62,695 nt of DNA from Chiloscyllium plagiosum. Taxonomy: Eukaryota. Below the pieces are notes generated by a model. It worked only from the letters and a program-made list of their open reading frames with translations, made no database searches and had not been told where the DNA came from. Made by a program: the position numbers and the translations under genes. Each line of letters opens with the position of its first letter. The first letter of the stretch is position 1. The stretch is from contig NC_057719.1 in the NCBI RefSeq assembly GCF_004010195.1, forward strand, positions 32,239,028-32,301,722. The letters are read 5' to 3'. Below, piece after piece: positions 2,753-56,815 of the stretch.

Positions 2753-3929
2753 GATGGGAAAGAGAAGAACTATCTAGCTTCCATGTCTTGTCATCATAAA
2801 AGAGGCAGCTACAGACAGGAAAGTATCTGACTCAGCCTCCCCATGTACCTAAGCCCCACAGACTGATCACAGAGGTTTCCCTTGATTTACCAAGCTGGGA
2901 CAATACAGGTGAAGACCCCACCATGCTGATCACATTCTAACACATTCCCTGGCAACATGCTGTATCACTGCCTCTGCTTTTATTTATATTTGATTCCTGT
3001 TGGGGTCCATACAAGAAGGCACAGGTCTGAGAAAATATATAACGTAGTTGTAAGGATTGTAGTCTGCTGGGAGTGTGCAGGTAGCAGCAGAAGTTTGGTA
3101 AGCAAAGCACACTGCTTTTTTTATTATTTTATGAAACCGTACAAAATACAAATAGTTGACAAGAAACAAAAAGCAGCAGTTCATTAAAAAAAACACTATT
3201 TACAGGTGAAGGGACAGCAAGGCCAAACCCCAAACCCAACTGTTCAATTAGTTAACAGGGAAATGAGGGTGAACCTCAAATCCCACCTTAAGTCATCAAA
3301 AAGAAAACAATAACAAACACAGACAAGACAACCAAATGAGAAACAGTGCACAGAACACAGACCCCCCTCCCCCCAGCAATTCAACAAGCCACCCACCCCT
3401 CCCACCTTCTGGCCAACAGGCAGCCCCACCCCCACCACGCCCCTTTCTGGCTCTCAGTCTGCCCATGCTCCTTCTGACTCCCAACCCACCCCCACGTCCC
3501 TATGCCTCTTCCGGCTCTCGGTCCACCCCTTCTGGCTCTCGGCCCACCCCTATGCCTCTGTGATTAGGAGGGCAAACCCATCTAGCACACTACTTTATAG
3601 AGAGAGTGAGAAGTAATGGGACATTGCATGGGTTTTTAACTTCTTTGTCTACAGGTGGCAGAAAGTGAAAGTTGTATCGTAGCAGCTGAGGATCAGATCA
3701 ATAAATTGTTCTCAGTATTACAATCCCTTGCAAAGTGATAAGGTTGGATGTTCACCTATTCTGCTGTGCGTGCCCATTGTGCTGGGCAATTTGCCTGGAC
3801 ACCGTTTCACCTCCTTTCTCCTGTTCCCCTCCTCTATTAATTGTTCCAGAGCAGGACCTAAAATATCTCTGACTGTCATTCTATTTTTTTTGCCAGCTCT
3901 CAGAGTGAATAGGATGTCTGACACTCCTG

Positions 3930-4405
3930 TTCTTTCTTTTTCTTTTTTTTCTTTTTATAATCCATGCACTACTGACCTACAGCAGTAGTGCTTATTTTCC
4001 CCAGCACCTATATTGTGTGTACAGGTGTAGGACATACACAATGAACAACGAGCGCAAAAATTTTTATTCATTTTCCATCACCAAGAAGAAAGGAAACACC
4101 AGGGTGGCCGGTGACAAGCAGTGGCCCTTCTCGTCAAAGGGCAATGCTGCGTGATCAAACAGTGAAAGGGGAGGGCGGAGACTAAATCAAAATAGAGTTG
4201 GAGGGGGAAATAAAAACCTCCACATTCTGCAGTGCCCACCTCTCCCTAAAAACCTCGAGGTGTTGGTAGACACGTGTGCTCCTTCTCCAGGGACACATGG
4301 GCTCGAACGTAACCATAGAAGGGGACAGGCAATTGGCCATAACAGCCCCCTCCACGGCCCACTGCCTGGATCTGTTTATGACCAGTTTGATCAGGCCCAG
4401 GAGCA
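3930..4405 (-). mobile_element. Tx1-like (L1 group) LINE 3' end
   Basis: ORF end ...LEVFRERWALQNVEVFISPSNSILI*, then a 3' UTR and an A-rich tail (T-rich on + at 3930-3957). Homologous to 7370-7745. Confidence 0.7.
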
Positions 4406-7369: not shown

Positions 7370-7745
7370 TCGAGCCCCGGAGAAGGAGCACGAGGTGTCC
7401 ACCAACACTCTTGAGCTGTTCAGGGAGAGGTGGGCACTGCGTGGACTCGAGTGTTTTATTTCCCCCTCCAACTCTATTTTGATTTAATCCCTACCCTCCC
7501 CTTCACCTTTTTGATCACGCAGGATTGCCCTGTTTTGAGAAGGGCACTGCTTGTCACTGGCCACACGGGTGTTTCCTTTCTTCCTAGTGGTGGAATATAA
7601 ATAAAGATTTACGCACTTGTTCTTCACTGTGTCCGACACCTACACACACACACACAATATGGGTGCTGGGGAAAAATAAACACTACTGCTGTTAGGTGGT
7701 AGTGTGGGGATAAAAAAAAAGACAAAAAGAACAAAAAGGAAAAGA
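7370..7745 (+). mobile_element. Tx1-like LINE 3' end
   Basis: EKEHEVSTNTLELFRERWALRGLECFISPSNSILI*, then a UTR with AATAAA, (CA)n and an A-rich tail. Same family as 3930-4405. Confidence 0.7.
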
Positions 7746-11571: not shown

Positions 11572-11890
11572 TAAAATATCACATGACCAGTTCTACCCTA
11601 TTATATGTTGGTTGCATATTTTGGAAACCTTTGCTGGTATTAGTATTTGTATTGAGAGAAAATGAGGTCTGCAGATGCTGGAGATCAGAGATGGAAATGT
11701 GTTGCTGGAGAAGCGTAGCAGGTCAGGCAGCATCTAGGGAACAGGAGAATCGATGTTTCGGGCATTAGCCCTTCTTCAGGAATGAGGAAAGTTTGTCCAG
11801 CAGGCTAAGATAAAAGATAGGGAGGAGGGACTTGGGGGAGGGGCGTCGGAAATGTGATAGGTGGAAAAAGGTCAAGGTGAGGGTGATAGG

Positions 11891-12483: not shown

Positions 12484-12957
12484 GGGGGGCATCGTCGACC
12501 ACGTCGGGGGGGGGAAATTGCGGTCCTTGAAGAAGGAGGCCATCTGGGATGTGCGTGTTTGGAACTGGTCCTCCTGGGAGCAGATGCGGCGGAGTCGAAG
12601 GAATTGGGAGAATGGGATGGCGTTTTTGCAGGGGGCAGGATGGGAGGAGGTGTAGTCCAGGTAGCTGTGGGAGTCGGTCGGTTTGTAGTAGATGTCCGTG
12701 TTGATTCGGTCGCCTGAGATGGAAATAGAAAGGTCGAGGAAGGGGAGGGAGGAATCTGAGACTGTCCAGGTGAATTAGTATTTGTATTCCCATTTTCAAT
12801 TTATATTCTCTGCCTAATGCAGTTTTGATAGTTCTGCTCTGACTCATTTTTTTTGTGTTTCTTTTACATTCCTTTATCTTTGAAGAGAGATATTTTGTGT
12901 CTCAGAACTGTTGGACAATTGGTTGCTTGACAAGATAATTCACACTTGCCTTTCAAG

Positions 12958-17300: not shown

Positions 17301-18283
17301 TGTAGACTGCACTTGGCCAACTGGCTAATCCTGCGTGTTACAGGTTTAAATGTGAAAGAAAGGTTCTTCCTCTGCATTGAAAATCTATGACTCAATGCTT
17401 CAACACACTAGTTCAATCCTGGCACAAGCAAAATTTAAACTATATGAAATTATTTCTAGGTGCAGGTTCTAGCAAAAGGTGGTCAGGCAATGCATACAAT
17501 GCAAATATTACCTACTGAGAACACTTTTTCAGATTTAATTGGTTGAATTTATTACATGCAAATGGAACTTATAAATTTCTTTTATAATGAGTAGATATAA
17601 AACATTAATATTTCACAGTTTGAAAAGCATATTAGGCGGAAGCGATGCAGCAGAATGATCACGAAAAAAATCCTAAATGATTCTCTTCACTAAATTTATT
17701 CACAATATTAATGTGGTAGCATAACTGACTAATAGAATGGTTAATGAAATTTTCTTAATTTGATAGAGGTAAATAAATCATGAAAGTTGTGATTTGACAG
17801 GAGGAGATGTGATACTGAAATGAACACCTACAAAAAATACCAGCTTACTGTCGGGGATGAAGTCCTGACACTGCATAGCCATGCAGGCTGAGGAAAAACA
17901 ACAACTACAGTATTGTTAGGGCTGTTCAATTAATGAGTGAGAGCCATGTTAGCCTGCCAATGAGACAACATTGGCAGGAGGTATTTCCCAGGTCATGCTA
18001 GGCTGGTGCCATACCTAAAAGGCTATTGCCTTAAAGACATGACTCCCAACCTAAACTAAGAGGGTGCTCTGCTAACTGCAGAAATTTGGAAATGTGTGGT
18101 TAGGTAGCTAGCACAGGAAATGTTTACAATATGGTTAAGAGTTAACAATCAAGCATGCTGGGAATTTACGTCAAACTACTTTAAACTCTAACCTTAGTTA
18201 AAACTGCTGTTTCTGGTGCTGACCAAGTAAGGCAAGTGACACAGAGCCTCTCGACAGACTGATGCCATATCACCTTATATTGA

Positions 18284-18575
18284 TGTGGAGGTGCCAGCAT
18301 TGGACTGGGGTGTACAAAGTTAAAAATCACAAAACACCAGGTTATAGTCCAACAGGTTTATTTGGAAGCACTAGCTTTCAGAGTGCTGCTCCTTCATTAG
18401 GTAGTTGTCAAACACACTGTGTCATTAACTTAAGTTTGGTTTGAATCAAATACTGCCTGGATTCAAGTAAAGTTGTCAGAACTACCTGATGAAGGAGCAG
18501 TGCTCCGAAAGCTAGTGCTTCCAAATAAATCTGTTGGACTATAACCTGGTGTTGTGTGATTTTTAACTTTGTACT
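18284..18575. mobile_element. PLE family C inverted-arm insertion with ~70-bp captured spacer
   Basis: Arms 18284-18406 (-) and 18480-18574 (+) are inverted copies. TSD ttatattga at 18275-18283 and 18576-18584. Confidence 0.9.
18483..18517 (+). ncRNA. Minimal type-I hammerhead ribozyme (family C)
   Basis: uac-CUGAUGA-a-GGAGC-agu-GCUCC-GAAA-g-CUA-gug: intact core, 5-bp stem II, palindromic AGCU mini stem III. Confidence 0.75.
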
Positions 18576-20363
18576 TTATATTGAGCATGAAATGTGGCTC
18601 TTTAACATTTGGGAATTTTTTATCTAGTAAAGTTCCATTGACTGGAATCAAACAGTCTGATCAAGCTTTGATCAATTCATTGGCTGAATGCCAGACAACT
18701 TTCTGGAAACTGAACATATTTTTGAGATAACAGTTAGCAGAACAAAGAGTCTTTGTGAGAAGCCTGTGTGAACATATTTGAGAAGCACGTGCCCTGAAGT
18801 GATCTTCAGAGAAGATCTGAGGTGAGACCTACGCAAAGTTGATGATTTTACTTGAATTCGGGCAGTATTTGTTTCAAGTCAAACTTAATTAAGTGACACA
18901 GTGTGCTCTATGAAGGTGAGAATAATGCATAACCTTAAGTCGTAATCCTAAATGTGACAAAAGATTAATTTAGATTTGGAAAAGCTTTCACATCCAGTCA
19001 GGGTCAATAACGAGATGGCAACATGTGCTGCTAGCTCTCTTAGCCTCTCTTTGGTGGACACTATTTGCACAGAATTCACAATGGTCAGAACTTAATTGCT
19101 ACATGGAGTCGAAATTGTTGTGGCACATAATGGACACTCAGGCTGCCACCAACATAGGTTCAGTATTTGTTAATGATGGGTGAAGGATAATTATTCATGT
19201 ACTTGAAGAAGAAAAGAACTCAGACCATCAGAATAAGTGGTTAATCATTCAGGACTGAGATAATGAGAAACCTCTTCTGCCAAACAATTGTGAATCTTAG
19301 AAATTCTCTACATAGTGGAATATAGATGCTCCATTGTTGAGTATATTGAAGACTGTGATTGGATCGCTCATGCAATCAAGATTTTTTTGGTGAGTTGGTG
19401 GGATTGTGAAGTTGAGGGAGAAGACCAGCTATGACTGTACTGAATGGATCTGGATCGTCATATAGTCTATTTCTGTTTTAATGTTAAGTGTTTTTGTGAT
19501 TAATTTTTATATCCATTTGTATGGTTGATATTTAGCCTCTTCCCACTGTAAAAACAGATATGCAGCATTCATGTATCAAGTTTGTCCTTCCCTGATTTCC
19601 ATCTCATATGTGCTTTCAACATATTTATGAAAATTAGTTCTGTATCTTTTCTGTACCTTAATCTTCTGATGCAGTAGTGACTTAGATACAAAGTTTTTTT
19701 CAGTATCCTATTTGAAGCAATTATTTGCATAACATGGAATATTAAGTGTTCAACCTTACCCAAAGTCACAAATGAGATCATTTATCATATCATACTTATG
19801 AGTCTGGACAGGTTAGTATGGTGAAAGTCAATAATAAATATTCACAGCGACTGCTTTTTCCAACATACCAGTCTAACTGTGGCAATTAATGCTGTTACTG
19901 AAGTTTTACTACCTTTTAATGCTGAGAGTAGCATAAATCAATGTAGTGATGGCAATGTAGTGCTGTGAAGCACAATTAATTTCCCTAATGCTTTCAGCAA
20001 GTCAGCCTTGCTCCAAATCCCAGACTATAAATAGAATCATGTCCTTGTTTTGCCTGAAATTGATTTTTCTTTCAACCATTCCCAGTCATCTTGGATGACA
20101 ACAGATCTTCACCTTGTTTCCAACTTATTCTTTGTCAATTTTCTGATCCTGGTGATATTAGAGTGTGTTCTCAGACTTGATGTCTCTAATCGTCCCAACT
20201 CCTTTCTTTCCACCAATGTTGACCTGACACGTGCATGCTTGCAGTCCTTCCCCTCTCAGACCAATTGGAGGATGAAAGTGAGGTCTGCAGATGCTGGAGA
20301 TCAAAGTTGAAACTTTATTGCTGGAACAGCACAGCAGGTCAGGCAGCATCCAGGGAACAGGAG

Positions 20364-20399
20364 ATTCGACGTTTCGGGCACAGGCCCTTCTTCAGGAAT
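20364..20399 (-). ncRNA. Minimal type-I hammerhead ribozyme (family A)
   Basis: Exact reverse complement of 21937-21972. Confidence 0.85.
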
Positions 20400-20545
20400 G
20401 AGCAGAGAGTGTTCAGCAGGAGAAGATAAAAGGTAGGGAGGAGGGACTTGGAGGAGGGGCGTTGGAAATGTGATAGGTGGAAAGAGGTCAAGGTGAGGGT
20501 GATAGGTCGGAGTAGGATGGAGGCGGAGAGGTCAAGAAGAAGACT

Positions 20546-21466
20546 ACTGCTGTTTGTCATTTTTATACATGACCTGGATGATGGCGTAGAAGGATGGGTT
20601 AGTAAATTTACAAATGACTCTAAGGTCGGTCGAGCTGTGGACAGTGCTGAAGGATATTGCTGCTTACAGAGGGACATAGATAAGCTGCAGAGTTGGGCTG
20701 AAAGGTGGCAAATGGAGTTTAATGCAGAAAAGTGTGAGGTGATTCATTTTGGAAGAAGTAACAGTAATACAGAGTACTGGGGTAATGGTAAGGTTCTTGC
20801 AGTGTGGATGAGCAGAAAGATCTCCGTGTCCATGTACATAGATCCCTGAAAGTTGCCACCCAGGTTAATAGGATTGTTAAGAAGGCATATGAACCATGGG
20901 GTTATGTTGCAGCTGTAGGAAACTATGGTGTGGCCGCACTTGGAGTATTGCGTACAGTTCTGGTTACCACATTATAGGAAGGATGTGTAAGTTTTGGAAA
21001 AGATGCAGAGGAGATTTATGAGGATATTGTCTGGTATGGAAGGAAGGTCTTCTGAGGAAAGACTGAGTGACCTGAGGCTGTTTTCGTTAGAAGGAAGAGG
21101 TTGAGAGGTGACTTAATAGAGATGTGAAAGATGATCAGAGGATTAGATAGTGTTAGCAGAGAGAGACGTTTTCCTCGGATAGTGATGGCTAGCATGAGAG
21201 GACATAGCTTTAAATTGAGCGGTGATAGATATAGGACAGATGTCAGAGGGGTAGTTTCTTTACTCAGAGAGTAGTAATGGCGTGAAACTCCCTGCCTGCA
21301 ACTGTAGTAGACTCACCGACTTTAATGTCTTTTTAAATGGCCATTGGATAAACATATGGATGATAATGCAACAATGCAGGTTAGTTCAGCTTCAGGCTGG
21401 TTTCACAGGTCAGCACAACATTGAGGGTCAGAGAGCCTGGACTGTGCTGTAATGTTCTGTGTTCTT
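20546..21466 (+). mobile_element. Decayed CR1 RT 3' portion (cargo inside the composite)
   Basis: LLFVIFIHDLD..SKFTNDSKVG..LQRDIDKLQSWAERWQMEFNAEKCEVIHFG, with frameshifts and a deletion. Tail at about 21450-21466. Confidence 0.9.
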
Positions 21467-21560
21467 TGAAAGCAAGATAATATTTCGAGTCTGGCGATTC
21501 TTCATCAGAACTGTTAACAGCTCAGGAAAGGTGGTAATATATTGAAGTGACGTTTGTGGG
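21467..21560 (-). mobile_element. PLE family B terminal fragment with HHR (cargo)
   Basis: Reverse complement ttctgatgaagaatcgccagactcgaaatattatc. Confidence 0.65.
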
Positions 21561-21599
21561 AAGGGGTTGGTCTTGCACAAGGTGACTTACTTGCCGATT

Positions 21600-21913
21600 T
21601 ACTTCCTCCAACCTCAGTATCCAAGGCCTCAGGCACACCTTCCAGGTGAAGCAGCAGCTTACCTGCACTTCTCTCAACTCATTTATTTCATTCACTGCTC
21701 AGAATGTGGTCTCCTGTATATCGGGGGAGATGAAACACAGATTTGATGACCGCTTTGCTGAACACCTACACTCTGTCTGTAAAACATGACCCAGAGTTTC
21801 CCACTGCCTCCACTTCAACACACCACTGTGTTCCTACACCAACATTTCTGTCCCAGATCTGTTGCAGTGTTCCTTAACGCAAGTTCAAAGAACAACACTT
21901 CATTTTCCACTTG
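21600..21913 (+). mobile_element. Decayed Penelope GIY-YIG endonuclease fragment (cargo)
   Basis: Frameshifted FQVKQQLTCTSLN..IYFIHCSECGLLYIG-EMKHRFDDRFAEHLHSV..EQHFIFHL. Confidence 0.8.
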
Positions 21914-21936
21914 CTCCTGCTGAACACTCTCTGCTC

Positions 21937-21972
21937 ATTCCTGAAGAAGGGCCTGTGCCCGAAACGTCGAAT
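21937..21972 (+). ncRNA. Minimal type-I hammerhead ribozyme (family A)
   Basis: AUUC-CUGAAGA-A-GGGC-cugu-GCCC-GAAA-C-GUC-GAAU: stem I AUUC/GAAU, stem II GGGC/GCCC, palindromic ACGU stem III. Predicted cleavage after C21968. Confidence 0.85.
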
Positions 21973-22084
21973 CTCCTGTTCCCTGGATGCTGCCTGACCT
22001 GCTGTGCTGTTCCAGCAATAAAGTTTCAACAATTGGAGGATGAACCAACTTCTCATTCGCTGATTTGATGATGTTTGGTTGTCA

Positions 22085-26680: not shown

Positions 26681-29072
26681 TTCATGGTAAAACTCTTGTC
26701 TTTAGATAGCTTGACATCCAACAGTCTAGGTGGGAGAGGCAAAATGAAATCAACACAATTTGAGGAAGCTGTACATTATTAAATGCACAATGCTTGAACT
26801 GACAATTACTCATGCTCTTTATCATCTCAAAAACTTAAACAAAATCAATTCTGCATTGTCTCTTCCTCATTGTCAATATTACTAGTTTTTGTAGTCCTCA
26901 GTTACTTATCTGAATTGCTGTGATTTTATTTAAACAGAGAGGTGAAGATTTATTAAATTGGTCAGTACAGATGGGAAAAGGTTACCTTAGACCTACCAGC
27001 AGGGTAAGAATGAACATGGTGATAGTGCACACATTTTATTTAAGGGATGGAGTTGACACGTATACATCATTGGCAAAAGAAAACATGCAAATCTGTTGGA
27101 AATAATATAATTGTGTTTGGGGCAAAGGCAGAATAGCACTGAGGTTGCTGTGCTTAAATTATATTATTCTGTGCCATTTGGAAAATGATGCCCACACTAT
27201 TTGACTCCTGCAGAAATTATGCATATATTGCCTCTATTTGCATAATGTTCAGTCCTGTTCAGCAATTTCTATTCTCTCTGATCATTTGTTCACACTTAAT
27301 GCATCAGCGCTCTGACCTGTCAGCAATTACTCTCATTCACTTCAACAATTTCGAATGATGGCAATCCCACTTTAAGGTGGCACTTTCACCTGTGAGGCTT
27401 TATTGATCTAAGCAAGATTGAATACATGATAACTAACCACGGTGTGACAATATTCTTCATAATCACTTGAAATAAAAACACAGACTACTTAATTCAAATC
27501 GTGATGCAGAGACCTCCGCTTTCCATGCAGTTAGTTCAGCTTTCATTTCAATAACTCTTTCAGTTCTGTGTTTCCTTGCTGAACACTGAGCATGGCTGAT
27601 ATTTGCCCTCATTTTCTTTTGTAGGGGCAAGGAAGGATGGATACAAAACATTTCTCTTAATATTGAAAACAATCTTTATTTTCCTTTTCAGCATATAAAT
27701 TCCAAGAACTGATAAATAGTGAAAAAAAAGTTCCAGATTAACAAACAGTTTTAATTGTGTTCTTGTAAACAAATGTCTTAAGCAATCACGTGTATGATTT
27801 GAGAACCATTGTAGAAATCTGGTTAAAAGATTGCCAAATCAGGACCCTGAATAATCAACTGCATCAAGAAACAATAGGGTTTGTAAAAAGGCACTGCGAA
27901 AATAGCGCTCAATTTCAATCTTCATCTTGTTTGAATGAATCAAATTTGCAAAGACAGCTCGGAAGATAAATTCAGGACAAAACGTATTCATAGTAAAAGA
28001 TCCTCTGAACAACTGCACAATTAATACAATTAACTTTCGCATTCAGTTTGACAGTGAGTAATATGGATCTAAAACTTTCCGTCTTAAACTTCACATAATT
28101 ATAAAAGTTATGAAGCCAGGTTTGGCTAAGAGGATTGGAAAACACAAGGCTAAAAGATTAGACAATACAGAAGTATTGGCAGACATTTAAGGAGATAATT
28201 CATAACTATCAACACAGATTCTATTGAGAAAGGAATGGTTGCACCATCCACAGCTATCTAAGAGAGGGAAGATTCATATCAAATTGAAATAAAGGTTTTC
28301 AGTACTGTGAAGATTAGTGGAAGGCCAGATGATGGGAAACCTTAAGAAGTGAGTAAAATATGACAAAAACAGGAAGGATTAGGATAAGACCATATGAACT
28401 AGGAGCAGGAATAGGCCATCTGGCGCTTCGAGCTCACTCTGTCATTCAATAAGATCATGGCTGAGCTTTTTGTGGCCTCAGCTCCACTTACCTGCCCTTT
28501 CACCATAACCCCTTAATTCTTTAACTGTTCAAAAAATTACCTATCTTAGCTTTAAAAACATTCAATAAGGAAGCCTCAACTACTTCACTGGACAGGGGAT
28601 TCCATAGATTCACAACACTCTGGGTGAAGAAGTTCCTTCTCAATTCAGTCCTAAATCTGCTCCTCCTAATTTTAAGGCTATGCCCTCTTGTCCTAGTTTC
28701 ACCCGCCAGTGGAAACATCCTCTCTACATCTATCTGATCTATTCCCTTCATAATTTTGACTGTTCCTATACGATTCCCCTCATTCTTCGAAATTCCAATG
28801 AATATAATTCCAGTCTACTCAGTCTGTCCTCTTAAACCAACCCCCTCAAATCTGGAATCAACCCAGTGAATGTCCTCTGCACCAATTCTCGTATCAGTAT
28901 ATGCCTTCTCAAAACTGTACACAGTACTCCAGGTGTGGCCTCACCAGCACCCTATTAGGCTGCAACATAACCTCTCTGTTTTTAAACTCAATACCTTTAG
29001 TAATGAAGGAAAAACTTCCATTTGCCTTCCTAATTATCTGTTGCACATGCAGACCAACCTTCTGTGATTCAT

Positions 29073-29980
29073 TGTATTGAAGATGTGGGTGCATTGTACT
29101 TTAGAGAGTTAAAAGCTAGTAGAACTACCTGACAGCACCAAGTGTTTTAAATAAGATAGGATGTAACATGTGGCCCAGCAGCCAGGGTAGCTGGTTGCCT
29201 GGAGTCAAAAAACAAATTTGAATTAGGACAATCAAAAAAAAACTCCAAACAAGTTTGAATTGATAATATTGACAATATTAAAAGCCAATGACACAATCTA
29301 ATGTTTTGTGCCTATAAGACCGAGAAAAAATTGAATAGTTGGGAGAGAACTGCCGAAAGACCAATAGATGTAGGCTACTAGTCAGAACTGAAAATGTGTT
29401 GCTGGAAAGGCGCAGCAGGTCAGGCAGCATCCAGGGAACCGGAGAATCGACATTTCGGGCATAAGCCCTTCCTGAAGAAGGGTTTATGCCTGAAACGTCG
29501 ATTCTCCTGTTCCTTGGATGCTGCCTGACCTGCTGCGCTTTTCCAGCAACACATTTTCAGCTCTGATCTCCAGCATCTGCAGCCCTCACTTTCTCTACTA
29601 GTCAGAACTCTCTGAGAGGGACCTGTCTCGTGAAAGAGTTTGCACAGAGAAAAAAAAAATCATCATGGACTTGGAGAGCAAACCCACAAAGAGAAGATTC
29701 GATCGCTGGCTGGTTTTGAAATTTGAATTTTTTGGTAAATCTTAATCAGGTTTCTTATCGGACCAGTGTTATAGAAGGGAATGTAAAAGATAAGTTAGAG
29801 GAAGGAGTTCTAAATAGTTGTTAGTTAATTATTCTCTGTTATACTTTAAGAAATAAAGTTGTTAATTTTTACTCTAAATAGTTCTTGGCCTCCAAATTTT
29901 CACAGATTACTGCATGGGATAAATCGTTTCTGTGTTGCTGGTTTAAAATTAACAGAGGGGGTTTACCCCATGTCGTAATG
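29073..29980 (+). mobile_element. Solo LTR (Gypsy-like) with nested PLE
   Basis: Starts TGTA, ends tcgtaatg (degenerate ..taaca). 5-bp TSD ttcat at 29068-29072 and 29981-29985; AATAAA near 29852. Confidence 0.75.
29390..29594. mobile_element. PLE family A palindromic (inverted-arm) insertion
   Basis: Short minus arm plus long plus arm with HHR core CTGAAGA 29472-29478 and GAAACGTC 29492-29499. 15-bp TSD ctactagtcagaact at 29375-29389 and 29595-29609. Confidence 0.92.
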
Positions 29981-30720
29981 TTCATACACAACGTCACCCA
30001 GGTCCCTCTGAACAGCAGCATGTTGCAATTTTTTACCACTTAAATAATAGTCCTTTTTATTATTATTCCTACCAAAATGGATATGAGAGGAAATTGGCAG
30101 AAAGGTTTAAAAAAAAAGCAGAAATGGATGCAATTAGCATAGCATCTCACCGAGAAAATGCTGGACAGTAGCAATTAAGACATTTAGAAAATCAGCCAGA
30201 ATAAATATAGTTTGTGGAAGAGAAATCATGTTTGCCAATCTTATTAATATTCTTTGAGAATGTAATATAGAATCATAAAGAAAAAACAGTAAATGTGCAT
30301 TTGGATTTCTAAAAGACATTGGATGAAAAGCCACATAAACACTTTCTAAAAAAGATAGCTCATGATGCTGAGGGTGATATGTTAGAGTGGACAGAGAACA
30401 GGCTAATGAACAGAAAACCAATGATCAGCTTCTTCCATGCCCTTCCTGACATTTTGTGTTCAGGTGCTTTGCTAAGCAGCAAAGGCTTCCCATACACTGA
30501 CTCTGTTGGCAATTAAACGGAGGACTCTCTTGCTGATGTCTAATTGCATTGGAGAAGTGCAACACTTTGGTCTTATGCTGGTAGCAAGCTCACCATGAAG
30601 CAAGTCTTTGAGAATGCAGCCATCACCCATCGTGCTCACGTGACACAGACAATGAAATTGTGGCTGACCCGATAGAGTCATTATGTTGGGGATCCCTGTT
30701 TGCTGCTACACCTTCATATT

Positions 30721-32745
30721 TGGTTAGAGCCAAGAAAACTACAGATGCTGGAAACCAAAGTAGACAGGCAGGAGGCTGGAAGAGCACAGCAAGCCAAGCA
30801 ACATCAGGAGGTAGAGAAGTCAACATGTTGGGTGTAACCCTTCTTCAGGACTGGGGGTGGGTGTAGGAGGAGCTGCAGATAAAGAGGGTGGCGGGGGCAG
30901 GGTGGTGAAGTAGGGTTGGGGGAAGATAGGCAGAGGGCATGACCTGGTTGGTCAATGGAAGGAATTAATCCAGTAGGTGGTCAGGAGGAGTGGAAGGAAG
31001 GAGGTGGAGCTGCGAAGGGAGTCAGGGAAGGGAGGGAGGTTAGTTGAAACTGGACAACTCAATGTTCAGTCCTCCGGGCTATAGGCTGACCAAGCGGAAG
31101 ATGAGGTGTTGTTCCTCCAATGTGCGGTTGGGTTCATTGTGGCAATGGTGTAGGCCAAGGATGGTCGTGTCGGAAAGGGAGTGGGAAGGGGAATTAAAAA
31201 TAGGCGGTGACTGGGAGATCTGCTCGACCCCTACGGACCCGGCTGAGTTTATGTTTCATCTCCCTGATGTGGAGAATCAGGAACACTGGATACAATAAGC
31301 TAGATTGGAAGAGAGGCAGGGGAACCTCTGTCTCACCTGGAAGGACTGTCTGGGACCTGGGATGGCGGTGAGGGGGGTGGTGTACCAGCAAGTTTTGCAT
31401 CTTTTCCAGTTGCAAGGGAAGGTATCTGGGGATTTGGGGGAGTTGGCGGGGAGAGTGGTGCAAACCAAGGACAGTCGAAGGGAATGATCCTTGAGGAAGG
31501 CAGAGAGGAGTGGGGAGGGGAAGATGTTCTTGTTGGTGGGATCTAGTTGAAGTTGGCTGAAGTGTTTAAGGATGATGGGTTGTAGGTGAGGACAAGGGGA
31601 ACTCTGTCTTTATTGAGTTTGGGGGGAGGAGTTTAGAGCAGTGGAGCGGGGAATGGAGGTGGTGCTGTGGAGGGCTGTCTGGATGACAGAGGGAGAAAAA
31701 GCTCATTGTTCGAAATTGGTAGACATCTGGGATGGTTGGGAGTAGAATGTCTCCTCATCTGAGCAGACGTGGCAGAGGCAGAGAAATTGGGAAAATGCAA
31801 TGGAGTTCTTGCAGGATACTGGGTGGGAGGAGGTATAGTGCAGGTAGTTGTGAGAGTCTGTGGGTTTATAGTAACCATCCATCTGGAGACTGTCACCGGA
31901 GTTGGAAATGGAGAGGTCATGAAAGGGGAGGGAGGTGTCTGAGATGGACCAAGTGAATTTGAGGGCAGGGTGGAAATTGTGGGCGGAGTCAATGAACTGC
32001 TCCAGTTCAGTCTGGCTATGCCAATGCAGTCATTGATGTAACGGTGGAAGAGTTGGGGTACAGTACCTGTGTAGGTACTGAAGAGGGACTGTTTGATATA
32101 ACTGACAAAGAGGCAGGAGTGCCTGAGGCCCATCCGAGTGCCCATGGCCACCCCCTGGATTTGGAGGAAATGGGAGGAGTTAAAGGAAAATTTATTAATG
32201 GCGAGGACCAGTTTGGTGAGGCAGAGGAAGGTATTGGTGGGGGGAGTCTGGATGAGTCTATTGCAGAGGAAGAAGTGGAGGGCCTTGAGGCCATCCTTGT
32301 GGGTTATGGATGTGTTTAAGGATGTAGATCCATAGTGAAGAGAAAACGCTGGGGGCCAGGAACTACAAGTTAGTGAAGAGTTGGAGGGTGTGGTTGGTGT
32401 TGCAGATATAGGTGGGAAGTGCCTGAACCAAGGGGGAGAGGACTGAGTCAATGTAGGATAAGATGGGTTCGGAGGGGCAGGAGCATGCTGAGACGATGGG
32501 TCAGCTGGGGTAGATGGGCTTATGGATCTTGGGGAGCAGGTAGAACCGGGCAGTGCGGGGCTGCAGGATTGAGGCTGGAGACAGTGGAGGGGAGATAGCT
32601 GGAGGCAATGAGGGCATGGACAGTGTGAGTGATTTTGACATGATGGGTTTCAGTTGGGTCGTGGGCAAGCGAGAGGTAGGATGTGGTGTCGGAGAGTTGG
32701 CGTTTGGCCTCTGCGACATAGAGGTCCATTCTCCAGACTACCACC
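30721..32745 (-). mobile_element. Penelope-like element: RT, GIY-YIG and 3' terminal repeat; 5'-truncated and frameshifted
   Basis: GGVVVVWRMDLYVAEAKRQLSD; PRTARFYLLPKIHKP; FSFNSSHFLQIQGVAMGTRMG; FHRYINDCIG; TFPCNWKRCKTC..FQVRQRFPCLSSNLAYCIQCS. Degenerate HHR arm at 30735-30850; degenerate TSD (10/13) at 30708-30720 and 32746-32758. Confidence 0.95.
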
Positions 32746-43049: not shown

Positions 43050-44340
43050 AAGATTCAGTACGGCCACTTCTCCTCCCTTGCCTCCCTTAGTAGCCTGGGA
43101 CACATCTTATTTGGGCTTGGAGTAAATATATTTAGTCACCTTTTTAAAAAAGCTCAGTTGAATTAGTTATCCAGGATCTCCATCTAACAAATCCTTGCTG
43201 ACTATCCCTGATCAATCCCTGCCTTTTCAAGTGTTGGTTAATCCCATCCTTCAGAACTTTTTTCCAATAATTTTCCTACCCTGAGATCAGACTAACTGCT
43301 TTGTAATTATATGGCCTATCCCTGCTATCCTTCTTGAACAAAAGTACTATATTAACTATCCTCCATTTATCTGGCACTTCTCTTTAACCAGCAAAGTATT
43401 AAATATCCCCAGGACCCCAGCAATCTCATCTGTTGCCTTCCTTAGCAGCCTGGGATACATCTCATCAGGCCCTAAGGAGTTATGCATCTGCCTGCTTGAT
43501 AAAACATCTGAGCCTTCCTCTGTATTAATATTAACATGCTCTAGAAGGTCACCATCCCAACTGAAATCTCCAGCTACAATGTCTTTCTCCTTTGTGAGTA
43601 CAGATGAAAAATATTAATTTAAGACCTCACCCATATCCTATGGTTCCATGCAGAAGTTGCTTTTTTGTCTCTAATACCTAATTTAGAGTTATAGAGAGGC
43701 CCAACCCTCTCCCTGGTAATCCTCTTACTATTAATATACTTATAAAAAAGCCTTGAGGTTTTCCTTGATCTGATCTGTCCAATATATTTTGTGTTCCCTC
43801 TTTGCCCTCCTAATTTCCTTTTTAAGTCCCCTGCTATACGCTCTACACTCCAGAAGGACCTCCCTGATGTATCTTTCTTTTTCTTCATCAAAGTCTTGGT
43901 ATCCTTTGACATCCCGGGTTCTCTGGACTTGCTGCCTTTGCCCTTCACTTTTTGCACTCTGGCCCTGAATTCTCAGTGTAATGCTTTTAAAAGACTAGGC
44001 GAAAGTGAGTACTGCAGATACTGGAGATTAGAGTCAAGAGTGTGGTGCAGGAAAAGCACAGCAGGCCAGGCAGCACCCGAGGAGTAGGAGAATTGACTTT
44101 TCAGGCAAAAGTTGTTCATCAGGAATTATGAAGGGCCTTTGCCCGATATGTCGATTTTCCTGCTCCTTGGATGCTGCCTGACCTGCTGTGCTTTTCCAGC
44201 ACCACACTCTTGATTCTAATTTTAAAAGACTCCCACTTTCCAAATGTAGATTTATTTGCAAGTAGCTGCTCCCAGTTTATGTTCACCAGATCCTGTCTAA
44301 TAATATTGGAATCGCCCTTCCCCCAATTTAGACACAACTA
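43050..44340 (-). mobile_element. CR1 ORF2 middle portion, decayed
   Basis: FYKYINSKRITRERVGPL; LNWGKGDSNIIRQDLVNINWEQLL. Confidence 0.85.
43997..44219. mobile_element. PLE family A inverted-arm insertion
   Basis: Long minus arm plus short plus arm. 12-bp TSD ttttaaaagact at 43985-43996 and 44220-44231. Confidence 0.9.
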
Positions 44341-55465: not shown

Positions 55466-56285
55466 GTTAAAGGAATAATATTCTAATTTTCTTTAATGGT
55501 ATCCCTCATTGCAGCTGAGAAAAACTATTCCTGAGAGTGATCTAGCTTCATGAAATTGTCCTCATCCTTACAGTTTTACTTCAGTGCTTTTCCCACACTT
55601 TACTTGCCAGATCAAAATATTGCAAACCACTCTATTTAAAAATAATTATTCAGCTCAAGGAAATAGCAAGGTAAGCTCTGGAACACTAATCATAATCAAA
55701 CATTTTACTTCATCTTACTCCTTGCAGGTATTGACTATTTAAGTTTGAATAACAAGGATATACAATAAAATTAGTATGGATTCCAACCCAAGGTCAGTGC
55801 ATTGTGGTACATTTTTAACTTGTTTTTACATTGGCTCTTCACACTGAAATTCCCTGTTGAAATACTTTTGAAAGAAGAATGAACCTATTGTTGAGTAAAT
55901 TATCAAGCAGATTCTTTCTTCTAAATGAAAGCTAAATTATTGGTTTGATTTTTCAGTGATAATTGTCATAACTTCTATTGTATTGTAAAATCTATGTTGT
56001 GACAATTTTACATATAGGTGATTACTTTGTTACTAATCAATGTGCAATTGCATTTCTAATAGTACCTTGTGCTTTGTTGCTTCTTGTACATAGACTTACC
56101 TTGGAAAATAGAAGCACAGACAAGGAAGTCAATCTGTGCATTGTGCCCCTTTGATTGAGTTTTCCACTTAGTACCAGTTCTCTGCTGTTTCTTCACAGCA
56201 CTGCAAATGTCTCCTTATCATTTGAAATGTCCTCTGCAATCTGTTGTCATCTGCAGATAGAGACCTTGGCTGAACTTTCCCTGCT

Positions 56286-56481
56286 GTGAGTGTGGCGCTG
56301 TAAAAGCACAACAGGTCAGCCAGCATCTGAGGAGTAGGAAAACCGACGTTTTGGAATCCTGATGAAGGGTTTATGCCTGAAACGTCGATTCTCCTGCTCC
56401 TCTGATGCTGGCTGACCTGCTGTGCTTTTACAGCACCACATTTTTGACTCTGACCCAGCATCTGTGGTCCTCACTTTCTCT
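56286..56481. mobile_element. PLE family A inverted-arm insertion
   Basis: Short minus arm plus long plus arm. Degenerate TSD (14/19) at 56267-56285 and 56482-56500. Confidence 0.85.
56355..56390 (+). ncRNA. Minimal type-I hammerhead ribozyme (family A)
   Basis: AAUC-CUGAUGA-A-GGGU-uuau-GCCU-GAAA-C-GUC-GAUU: stem I intact, stem II with two G-U pairs. Confidence 0.7.
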
Positions 56482-56815
56482 TAGTTGAATTTTTTCTGCT
56501 CCCTGAATGACAATGTGGACAATGGGGAGTCACCTGGTAAAACATATGTAGGTTTGTAAAAATGAGATTATTGACATGAAGAAAAGGTTTGATTTTACAC
56601 CCAAAGTTCAAATGATGAGACAAGAATTTCATCAGTGAGTAGCAAGATAACTCTTTGCATTTATTAACATCTTATTAGTACCAAATCTTATTTTATTTAA
56701 ATGTAGTTTCCTGTTGTCTTATGCACTGGAGAGAAACTGGATACGACATGAAAATGAGAGCAGGTACATGGCAGGTCCAATACTCACTACTTGCTTCTCT
56801 CGCACTCCAACCTGG

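Follow-up and report, generated by a model that had tools for sequence, protein, structure and literature searches.

A reversed copy of nearby flank between the inverted arms of a dead Penelope-like stub, most likely a scar of DNA-break repair

Within a 62,695-nucleotide stretch of Chiloscyllium plagiosum DNA—the whole of the sequence analysed here, which we call the window—the unit at 18275-18584, together with the filler between its two arms, is a real, old and single event. The filler of this dead Penelope-like stub is most likely a scar left when a DNA break was repaired, a kind of scar known in yeast and at other retrotransposons, and it most likely arose by DNA synthesis templated on the nearby flank. 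What is new here is a filler that lies between two cDNAs and carries a repeat of an arm tip; in its working it resembles known fold-back repair insertions.

Anatomy of the fold-back and its filler

The first-pass annotation had placed inverted arms of one family inside a 9-bp target-site duplication, and this holds on both counts: the arms pair, and TTATATTGA stands on either side of them, at 18275-18283 and 18576-18584, with an extra T at 18575. The paired part extends over 95 nt (18312-18406 against 18480-18574) with 6 differences (94% complementary), three of which fall at likely CpG sites. The features discussed below are as follows.

18114..18890, no strand: host stretch with multi-hit patches at 18114-18224, 18632-18816 and 18854-18890; probably a dispersed repeat, old and of low copy number
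18275..18283, plus strand: target-site duplication, copy 1 (TTATATTGA); its final three letters also fit the family end, and loose ends of the family fall at 18281
18284..18408, minus strand: left arm, antisense end module of a high-copy, putatively Penelope-like family (pairing and read depth)
18403..18410, plus strand: AGTTGTCA, the left arm's last six letters and two non-family letters; recurs at 18471-18478
18411..18412, no strand: two letters that fit neither arm nor donor; capture end, without microhomology
18413..18470, minus strand: reversed copy of 18848-18905, 58 nt with 8 differences (BLAST and alignment; present in organism B)
18471..18478, minus strand: 8-mer identical to the left tip, the presumed primer, in register with donor 18840-18847
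18480..18574, plus strand: right arm, sense end module of the left-arm family, tail-less (pairing and family reads)
18483..18517, plus strand: minimal hammerhead-like motif (motif scan, helix II in the fold, and comparison with PMC4209133)
18576..18584, plus strand: target-site duplication, copy 2 (sequence)
18840..18905, plus strand: putative donor, made up of the priming site 18840-18847 and the copied stretch 18848-18905 (BLAST and alignment)

Family reads show the left arm spanning 18284-18408, so 18284-18311 is an unpaired tail; it is found on the left arm only and measures 28 nt, or 31 nt with the three letters common to the target copy, slightly below the quoted range of 30-40 bp. Both modules are 5'-truncated and stand head-to-head; without an ORF, they amount to two stubs. 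The right-arm motif comprises CTGATGA, a bulged A, a 5-bp helix II, GAAA, a palindromic helix III of 2 nt and a helix I of 3 bp, and the element ends lie 86 and 114-117 nt beyond the ATG in the hammerhead core. By its letters the right arm reads as a putative minimal hammerhead, much like the variants described in PMC4209133. An Rfam search of 18200-19000 with E values up to 5 returned no hammerhead match, only sub-threshold hairpin matches, and the right arm folds no better than shuffled sequences (z 0.65). The label 'Penelope-like' is thus used here as a provisional one, which rests on the inverted ends, the one-sided tail, the hammerhead-like motif and the 9-bp duplication.

The arm family is represented in the window by this locus alone, and abounds elsewhere. 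Four public runs were compared with 18040-19120 at 80% likeness—raw reads of organism A, contigs of organism B, and two runs from one sample of organism C. Unique flank has a read depth of 0-0.7 and the arms one of 27,000-31,000; for an assumed genome size of 3-5 Gb, the family is estimated at ~40,000-80,000 copies. At other loci of the family the arms are joined at many points (2,207 joints, of which 15 are listed); letters stand between the arm sides in 800 rows, the 12 listed having 1-26 nt, and some of these letters resemble arm sequence. Pattern scans of viral and metagenome contigs with the arms and with filler and donor gave 0 matches, and a scan for bacterial promoters found 2, with 1.7 expected.

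The spacer had been read as the reverse complement of 18840-18905, with its donor visible nearby, and we arrive at the same reading. Positions 18413-18478 differ from that stretch at 11 of 66 ungapped positions, or by 10 events in an alignment with two one-base gaps. When 18405-18482 is searched against the window with BLAST, there is one real match (59 nt, 86.4%, E 1e-15), the second being at chance level (E 0.49). Aligned locally to its 1-kb flanks, the filler scores 81, and 285 random 2-kb stretches of the window score at most 26; the match is unique in the window and far beyond chance. The donor starts 256 nt beyond the second target copy.

A direct repeat of AGTTGTCA, absent from the first-pass annotation, bounds the filler at 18403-18410 and 18471-18478. 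Such an 8-mer repeat occurs in 38 of 19,810 random window stretches, or in 60 of 19,810 when inverted repeats are counted too. Against the donor at 18840-18847 the right-hand 8-mer matches at five of eight positions, and at six of eight with the letter that organisms B and C carry at 18846; matches of six in eight are common in the flanks, at 5 to 8 per kb and strand. At the capture end there are two letters and no overlap, so microhomology was little or none. Because the 8-mer repeats the left tip and sits in register with the donor, the bottom strand is best read, from its letters, as the right arm, a single letter, a left-tip copy, 58 bases of donor, two more letters, and the left tip once more. 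Two other accounts of the filler were rejected: it is not part of a family consensus, given that family reads go on with other letters past 18408 and before 18480; nor is it an older stretch flanked by two separate insertions, for a single target duplication bounds the unit and none stands at the inner ends.

A second unit, at 20262-22044, had been taken for a product of the same process, and here we do not follow the earlier reading: its 1.37-kb middle has no donor in the window, and its best matches there (66-81%) are other repeat copies. The middle therefore derives from a more distant source or is a later insertion, and it may be a capture from elsewhere. The unit is a young inverted pair from another family, with arms of 117 nt at 100% identity and a 15-bp target duplication; its middle holds part of a decayed LINE-like RT, an old fragment from a third family with hammerheads, and a frameshifted stretch that looks GIY-YIG-like by eye. 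A Pfam search with pieces of this element gave sub-threshold matches only. Long filler is found in two of the five inverted pairs in the window, and a local donor is visible for one of these two. The three pairs without long filler lie at 29382-29603, 43993-44220 and 56283-56485; their target duplications measure 15 bp in the first and 12 bp in the second, with none clear in the third.

Some further observations concern elements elsewhere in the window. A stop-free stretch on the minus strand at 12505-12774 resembles HTH_animal clusters, and a Pfam scan of it came back blank; it lies across an assembly gap from an arm at 11658-11890, which belongs to another family with the same motif layout. 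The HTH_animal domain is linked to Penelope proteins. An inverted pair of ~370 nt, at 3927-4292 and 7375-7744, has 80% identity and is set 3 kb apart.

Age, copy number and divergence

Related organisms speak to both the reality and the age of the unit (24 of 281,737 contig pieces are listed). A contig of organism B covers 18381-18505, and with it the entire filler, with 4 other letters; contigs of organism C extend 41 letters past the outer junction on the left and 36 past that on the right; and further organism B contigs enter the arms by 25-28 letters, below the 31-letter rule for a crossing. Since the one organism covers the filler and the other crosses both outer junctions, the unit is not an assembly artefact. 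As B and C share the insertion, it predates the splits among A, B and C, whose flanks differ by ~3-6%, and as the B contig contains the whole filler, the filler predates the split of A and B. The pieces listed for organism C do not include the filler, and the 15 joints listed, out of 2,207, include no empty site. At 18846 organisms B and C carry the filler's letter; one filler/donor difference therefore arose late in the donor of A, and the older donor was closer to the filler.

That the filler might be a dispersed repeat had been named as grounds against the capture, and this applies in part: at 80% likeness filler and donor each attract other loci, from several up to tens, although a local donor is still the likeliest. 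Raw read depth is 21 in the filler bin and 8.6 in the donor bin, against 0-0.7 in unique flank, and spill-over from the arms may inflate the former. Contig depth is ~12-20 (filler) and ~5-14 (donor) times that of a single copy, with the proviso that summed contig depth is no copy number. Because both bins exceed single-copy depth, other possible donors exist. The neighbouring stretches 18114-18224 and 18632-18890 receive as many as ~90 contig-equivalents of other loci, whose deviating letters are consistent, and are probably one old repeat split by the insertion. With these patches multi-hit too, the insertion probably sits within a repeat that is old and of low copy number, which would account for the reads from other loci on filler and donor; six-frame reading of the flanks and a Pfam search with the 47-aa frame at 18587-18727 yielded no name for this repeat. 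In an assumed 4-Gb genome with 40 to 4,000 copies of the repeat, a filler picked at random has odds of between 7e-6 and 7e-4 of resembling the 700 bp that surround the site, and a local donor is favoured for this reason; we hold it to be highly probable.

Divergence fits this picture less neatly. Similar filler/donor and arm/arm divergence had been proposed as support for a single event; the former comes to 12-17%, about twice the 6.3% of the arms, with Fisher p values of 0.04-0.27 according to the count of differences used. The value is 0.15 for 8 differences in 58 (filler/donor) against 6 in 95 (arms), 0.04 when the 8-mer is included (11 in 66 against 6 in 95), and 0.09-0.27 for alternative difference counts. 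Given the arms, the predictive chance of at least 8 differences in 58 is 0.10, falling to 0.03 when the arm rate is treated as known exactly. The filler/donor excess over the flank rate between A and B has p 0.0007; the insertion, however, predates that split. The arms themselves are little more diverged than the A-B flank (6 in 95 against 22 in 570, p 0.27). We regard the excess divergence of filler and donor as a real but modest tension, which could be explained by chance, by conversion between arms that lie 73 nt apart, or by a different donor.

Routes to a locally templated filler

The original proposal was a nascent strand switching template onto nearby DNA during insertion. Its first half, DNA synthesis on the nearby flank, is likeliest; timing and nascent strand are less secure, as the 8-nt repeat also fits a later staggered break. 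We lean towards the view that the locally templated filler arose while two cDNAs were being joined, the right-hand 3' end folding back. On this account the element's protein would cut both strands, each 3' end would prime reverse transcription, and one priming at each of the family's two start points would leave the one-sided tail. The right-hand cDNA end would first copy the left cDNA's tip for 8 bases, dissociate, and fold back onto its own strand of the right flank, made single-stranded by ~320 nt of 5' resection; there it would prime at the imperfect 6-of-8 match at 18840-18847. After 58 bases had been copied and the end released, two untemplated bases would be added before end-joining to the same left tip. 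The polymerase could be a host repair enzyme (Pol theta or delta) or the element's own.

The fold-back model draws support from the two properties of the 8-mer—that it repeats the left tip and that it sits in donor register—which one model explains together. The donor template strand is the strand that bears the right-arm cDNA, and the reversed orientation of the filler is that of a right-flank fold-back. At yeast breaks, fold-back insertions are primed at imperfect microhomology and captured with little or none (PMC11724301). A Penelope-like protein from Anolis cuts and extends the two strands in vitro, and its two start sites, one of which lies 111-118 nt inside the ORF, set the tail (PMC11167929); twin priming is described as not yet validated in the review PMC10760644.

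The same local donor could also have served a later patch, a history to which we give distinctly less credence. Here a sealed hairpin would have suffered a staggered central break with 8-nt 3' overhangs, followed by fold-back, copying of 58 nt and end-joining; the break might come from cruciform processing or from the element's endonuclease cutting its own end module, and the repair would be purely the host's. Removing one 8-mer together with the filler does restore an ordinary hairpin joint with a 5-nt loop, and three of the five inverted pairs in the window are without long filler. An 8-nt duplication is what a staggered break produces, and the yeast events begin at such overhangs (PMC11724301); the Anolis protein, for its part, nicks its own pLTR DNA (PMC11167929). 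A patch younger than the arms should, however, differ less than they do, and it differs more (8/58 against 6/95). The filler was, moreover, already in place before A and B split, and as the arms have diverged little more than the A-B flank, the interval left for a later patch is short.

That the filler came from another copy of the old repeat, its likeness to 18848-18905 being family likeness, is in our judgement unlikely. Both filler and donor match other loci at 80%, the raw read depth of the filler exceeds that of the donor (21 against 8.6, with spill-over possible), and the 86% identity is below the arm-based expectation. Such a donor would, however, require a chance pick of the target's own low-copy family, at 7e-6 to 7e-4 for the assumed copy numbers, unless the choice was guided by homology; and a coherent family consensus for filler and donor was not seen: of the 40 difference rows listed out of 150, that at 18846 is the only one to fall in either of them.

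A little less probable again is an RNA template, in which the element's RT would jump to a minus-strand transcript across the site and copy 58 bases before the join. The product would have the same orientation as that of a DNA fold-back. RT jumps are compatible with one or two untemplated letters at each joint. A piece of local pre-mRNA has been co-inserted once with L1 (PMC10191854). Against an RNA template, no host gene or transcript was seen at the site, where ORFs of at least 110 aa resemble repeat fragments by eye; a search restricted to records of the DNA kind has no RNA holder; and a DNA fold-back requires no additional molecule. Chance or an assembly error we dismiss: raw reads of organism A, at ~0.5-fold, are too thin to confirm the joints, but the match has E 1e-15 and scores 81, where random stretches reach 26 at most; organism B contains the filler, and organism C both outer junctions.

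Known systems and the final step of Penelope integration

The layout of Pen2a_Av and of Penelope-like elements comprises inverted ends, a one-sided tail and a 9-bp duplication (PMC3846280, PMC8557442), and the unit described here is like endonuclease-bearing Penelope-like pLTR insertions in its inverted modules, 9-bp duplication, one-sided tail of ~30 bp and hammerhead-like motif (PMC3846280, PMC8557442, PMC11167929). It is unlike insertions of the Pen2a_Av type in consisting of ORF-less stubs, the gene capture documented there being between direct pLTRs (PMC3846280). The same paper reports, for a rotifer, non-coding DNA captured between solo pLTRs inside target duplications, with no local donor stated in the part available. 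Transduction of host DNA between direct pLTRs was rejected as a source for our filler: the arms are in inverted orientation, and the DNA that the filler matches is found at the target site. We found no Penelope filler traced to its target flank in the literature covered, outside which most subscription journals and supplements fall.

The closest parallels lie in break repair and in other retrotransposons. Local fold-back insertions at yeast breaks share with the proposed route a resected right end, imperfect microhomology, short synthesis, release and end-joining, and their templated inverted insertions measure 2 to about 150 bp; they differ in that the 3' end here would be that of a retroelement cDNA, in a loop of ~360 nt against 41, and in that the present case is known from sequence (PMC11724301). 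Four L1 insertions carry fold-back inversions (three alone, one with an inversion) with 52-220 bp of extra synthesis (PMC10191854), and local inverted duplications at L1 insertions are also on record (bioRxiv 10.1101/2024.12.14.628481). The likeness to L1 lies in a reversed copy of target flank, of similar length, made during the resolution of insertion, with self-annealing of resected ends (PMC10191854; bioRxiv 10.1101/2024.12.14.628481); in L1, however, the copy sits at the 5' junction beside the target, whereas ours is flanked by two cDNAs within a target duplication that has stayed intact (PMC10191854). In the 'snap-back' 5' junctions of R2, too, a cDNA 3' end primes DNA-templated synthesis, sometimes on nearby target, although those cases concern engineered R2 in human cells, with one cDNA that is mostly self-templated (PMC11371274).

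How the inverted structures of Penelope-like elements form, and how their insertion is completed, is stated as open in the parts available of PMC8557442 and PMC11167929. A filler that can be traced to the flank and that comes with a tip repeat is a direct clue to this step—one that points to a join at a resected break, with synthesis of the repair type. One old locus cannot settle the mechanism of the join, and each ingredient has already been described for L1, R2 or yeast. Tentatively, Penelope fold-backs may arise from priming at both ends of a true double-strand break, with the last join routinely made through a resected intermediate in which a cDNA 3' end tries out both the tip of its partner and the flank on its own side as templates. 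If this were true, tens of thousands of fossil joints would record the final step of Penelope integration, and reversed local fillers with short tip repeats would be its recurring signature.
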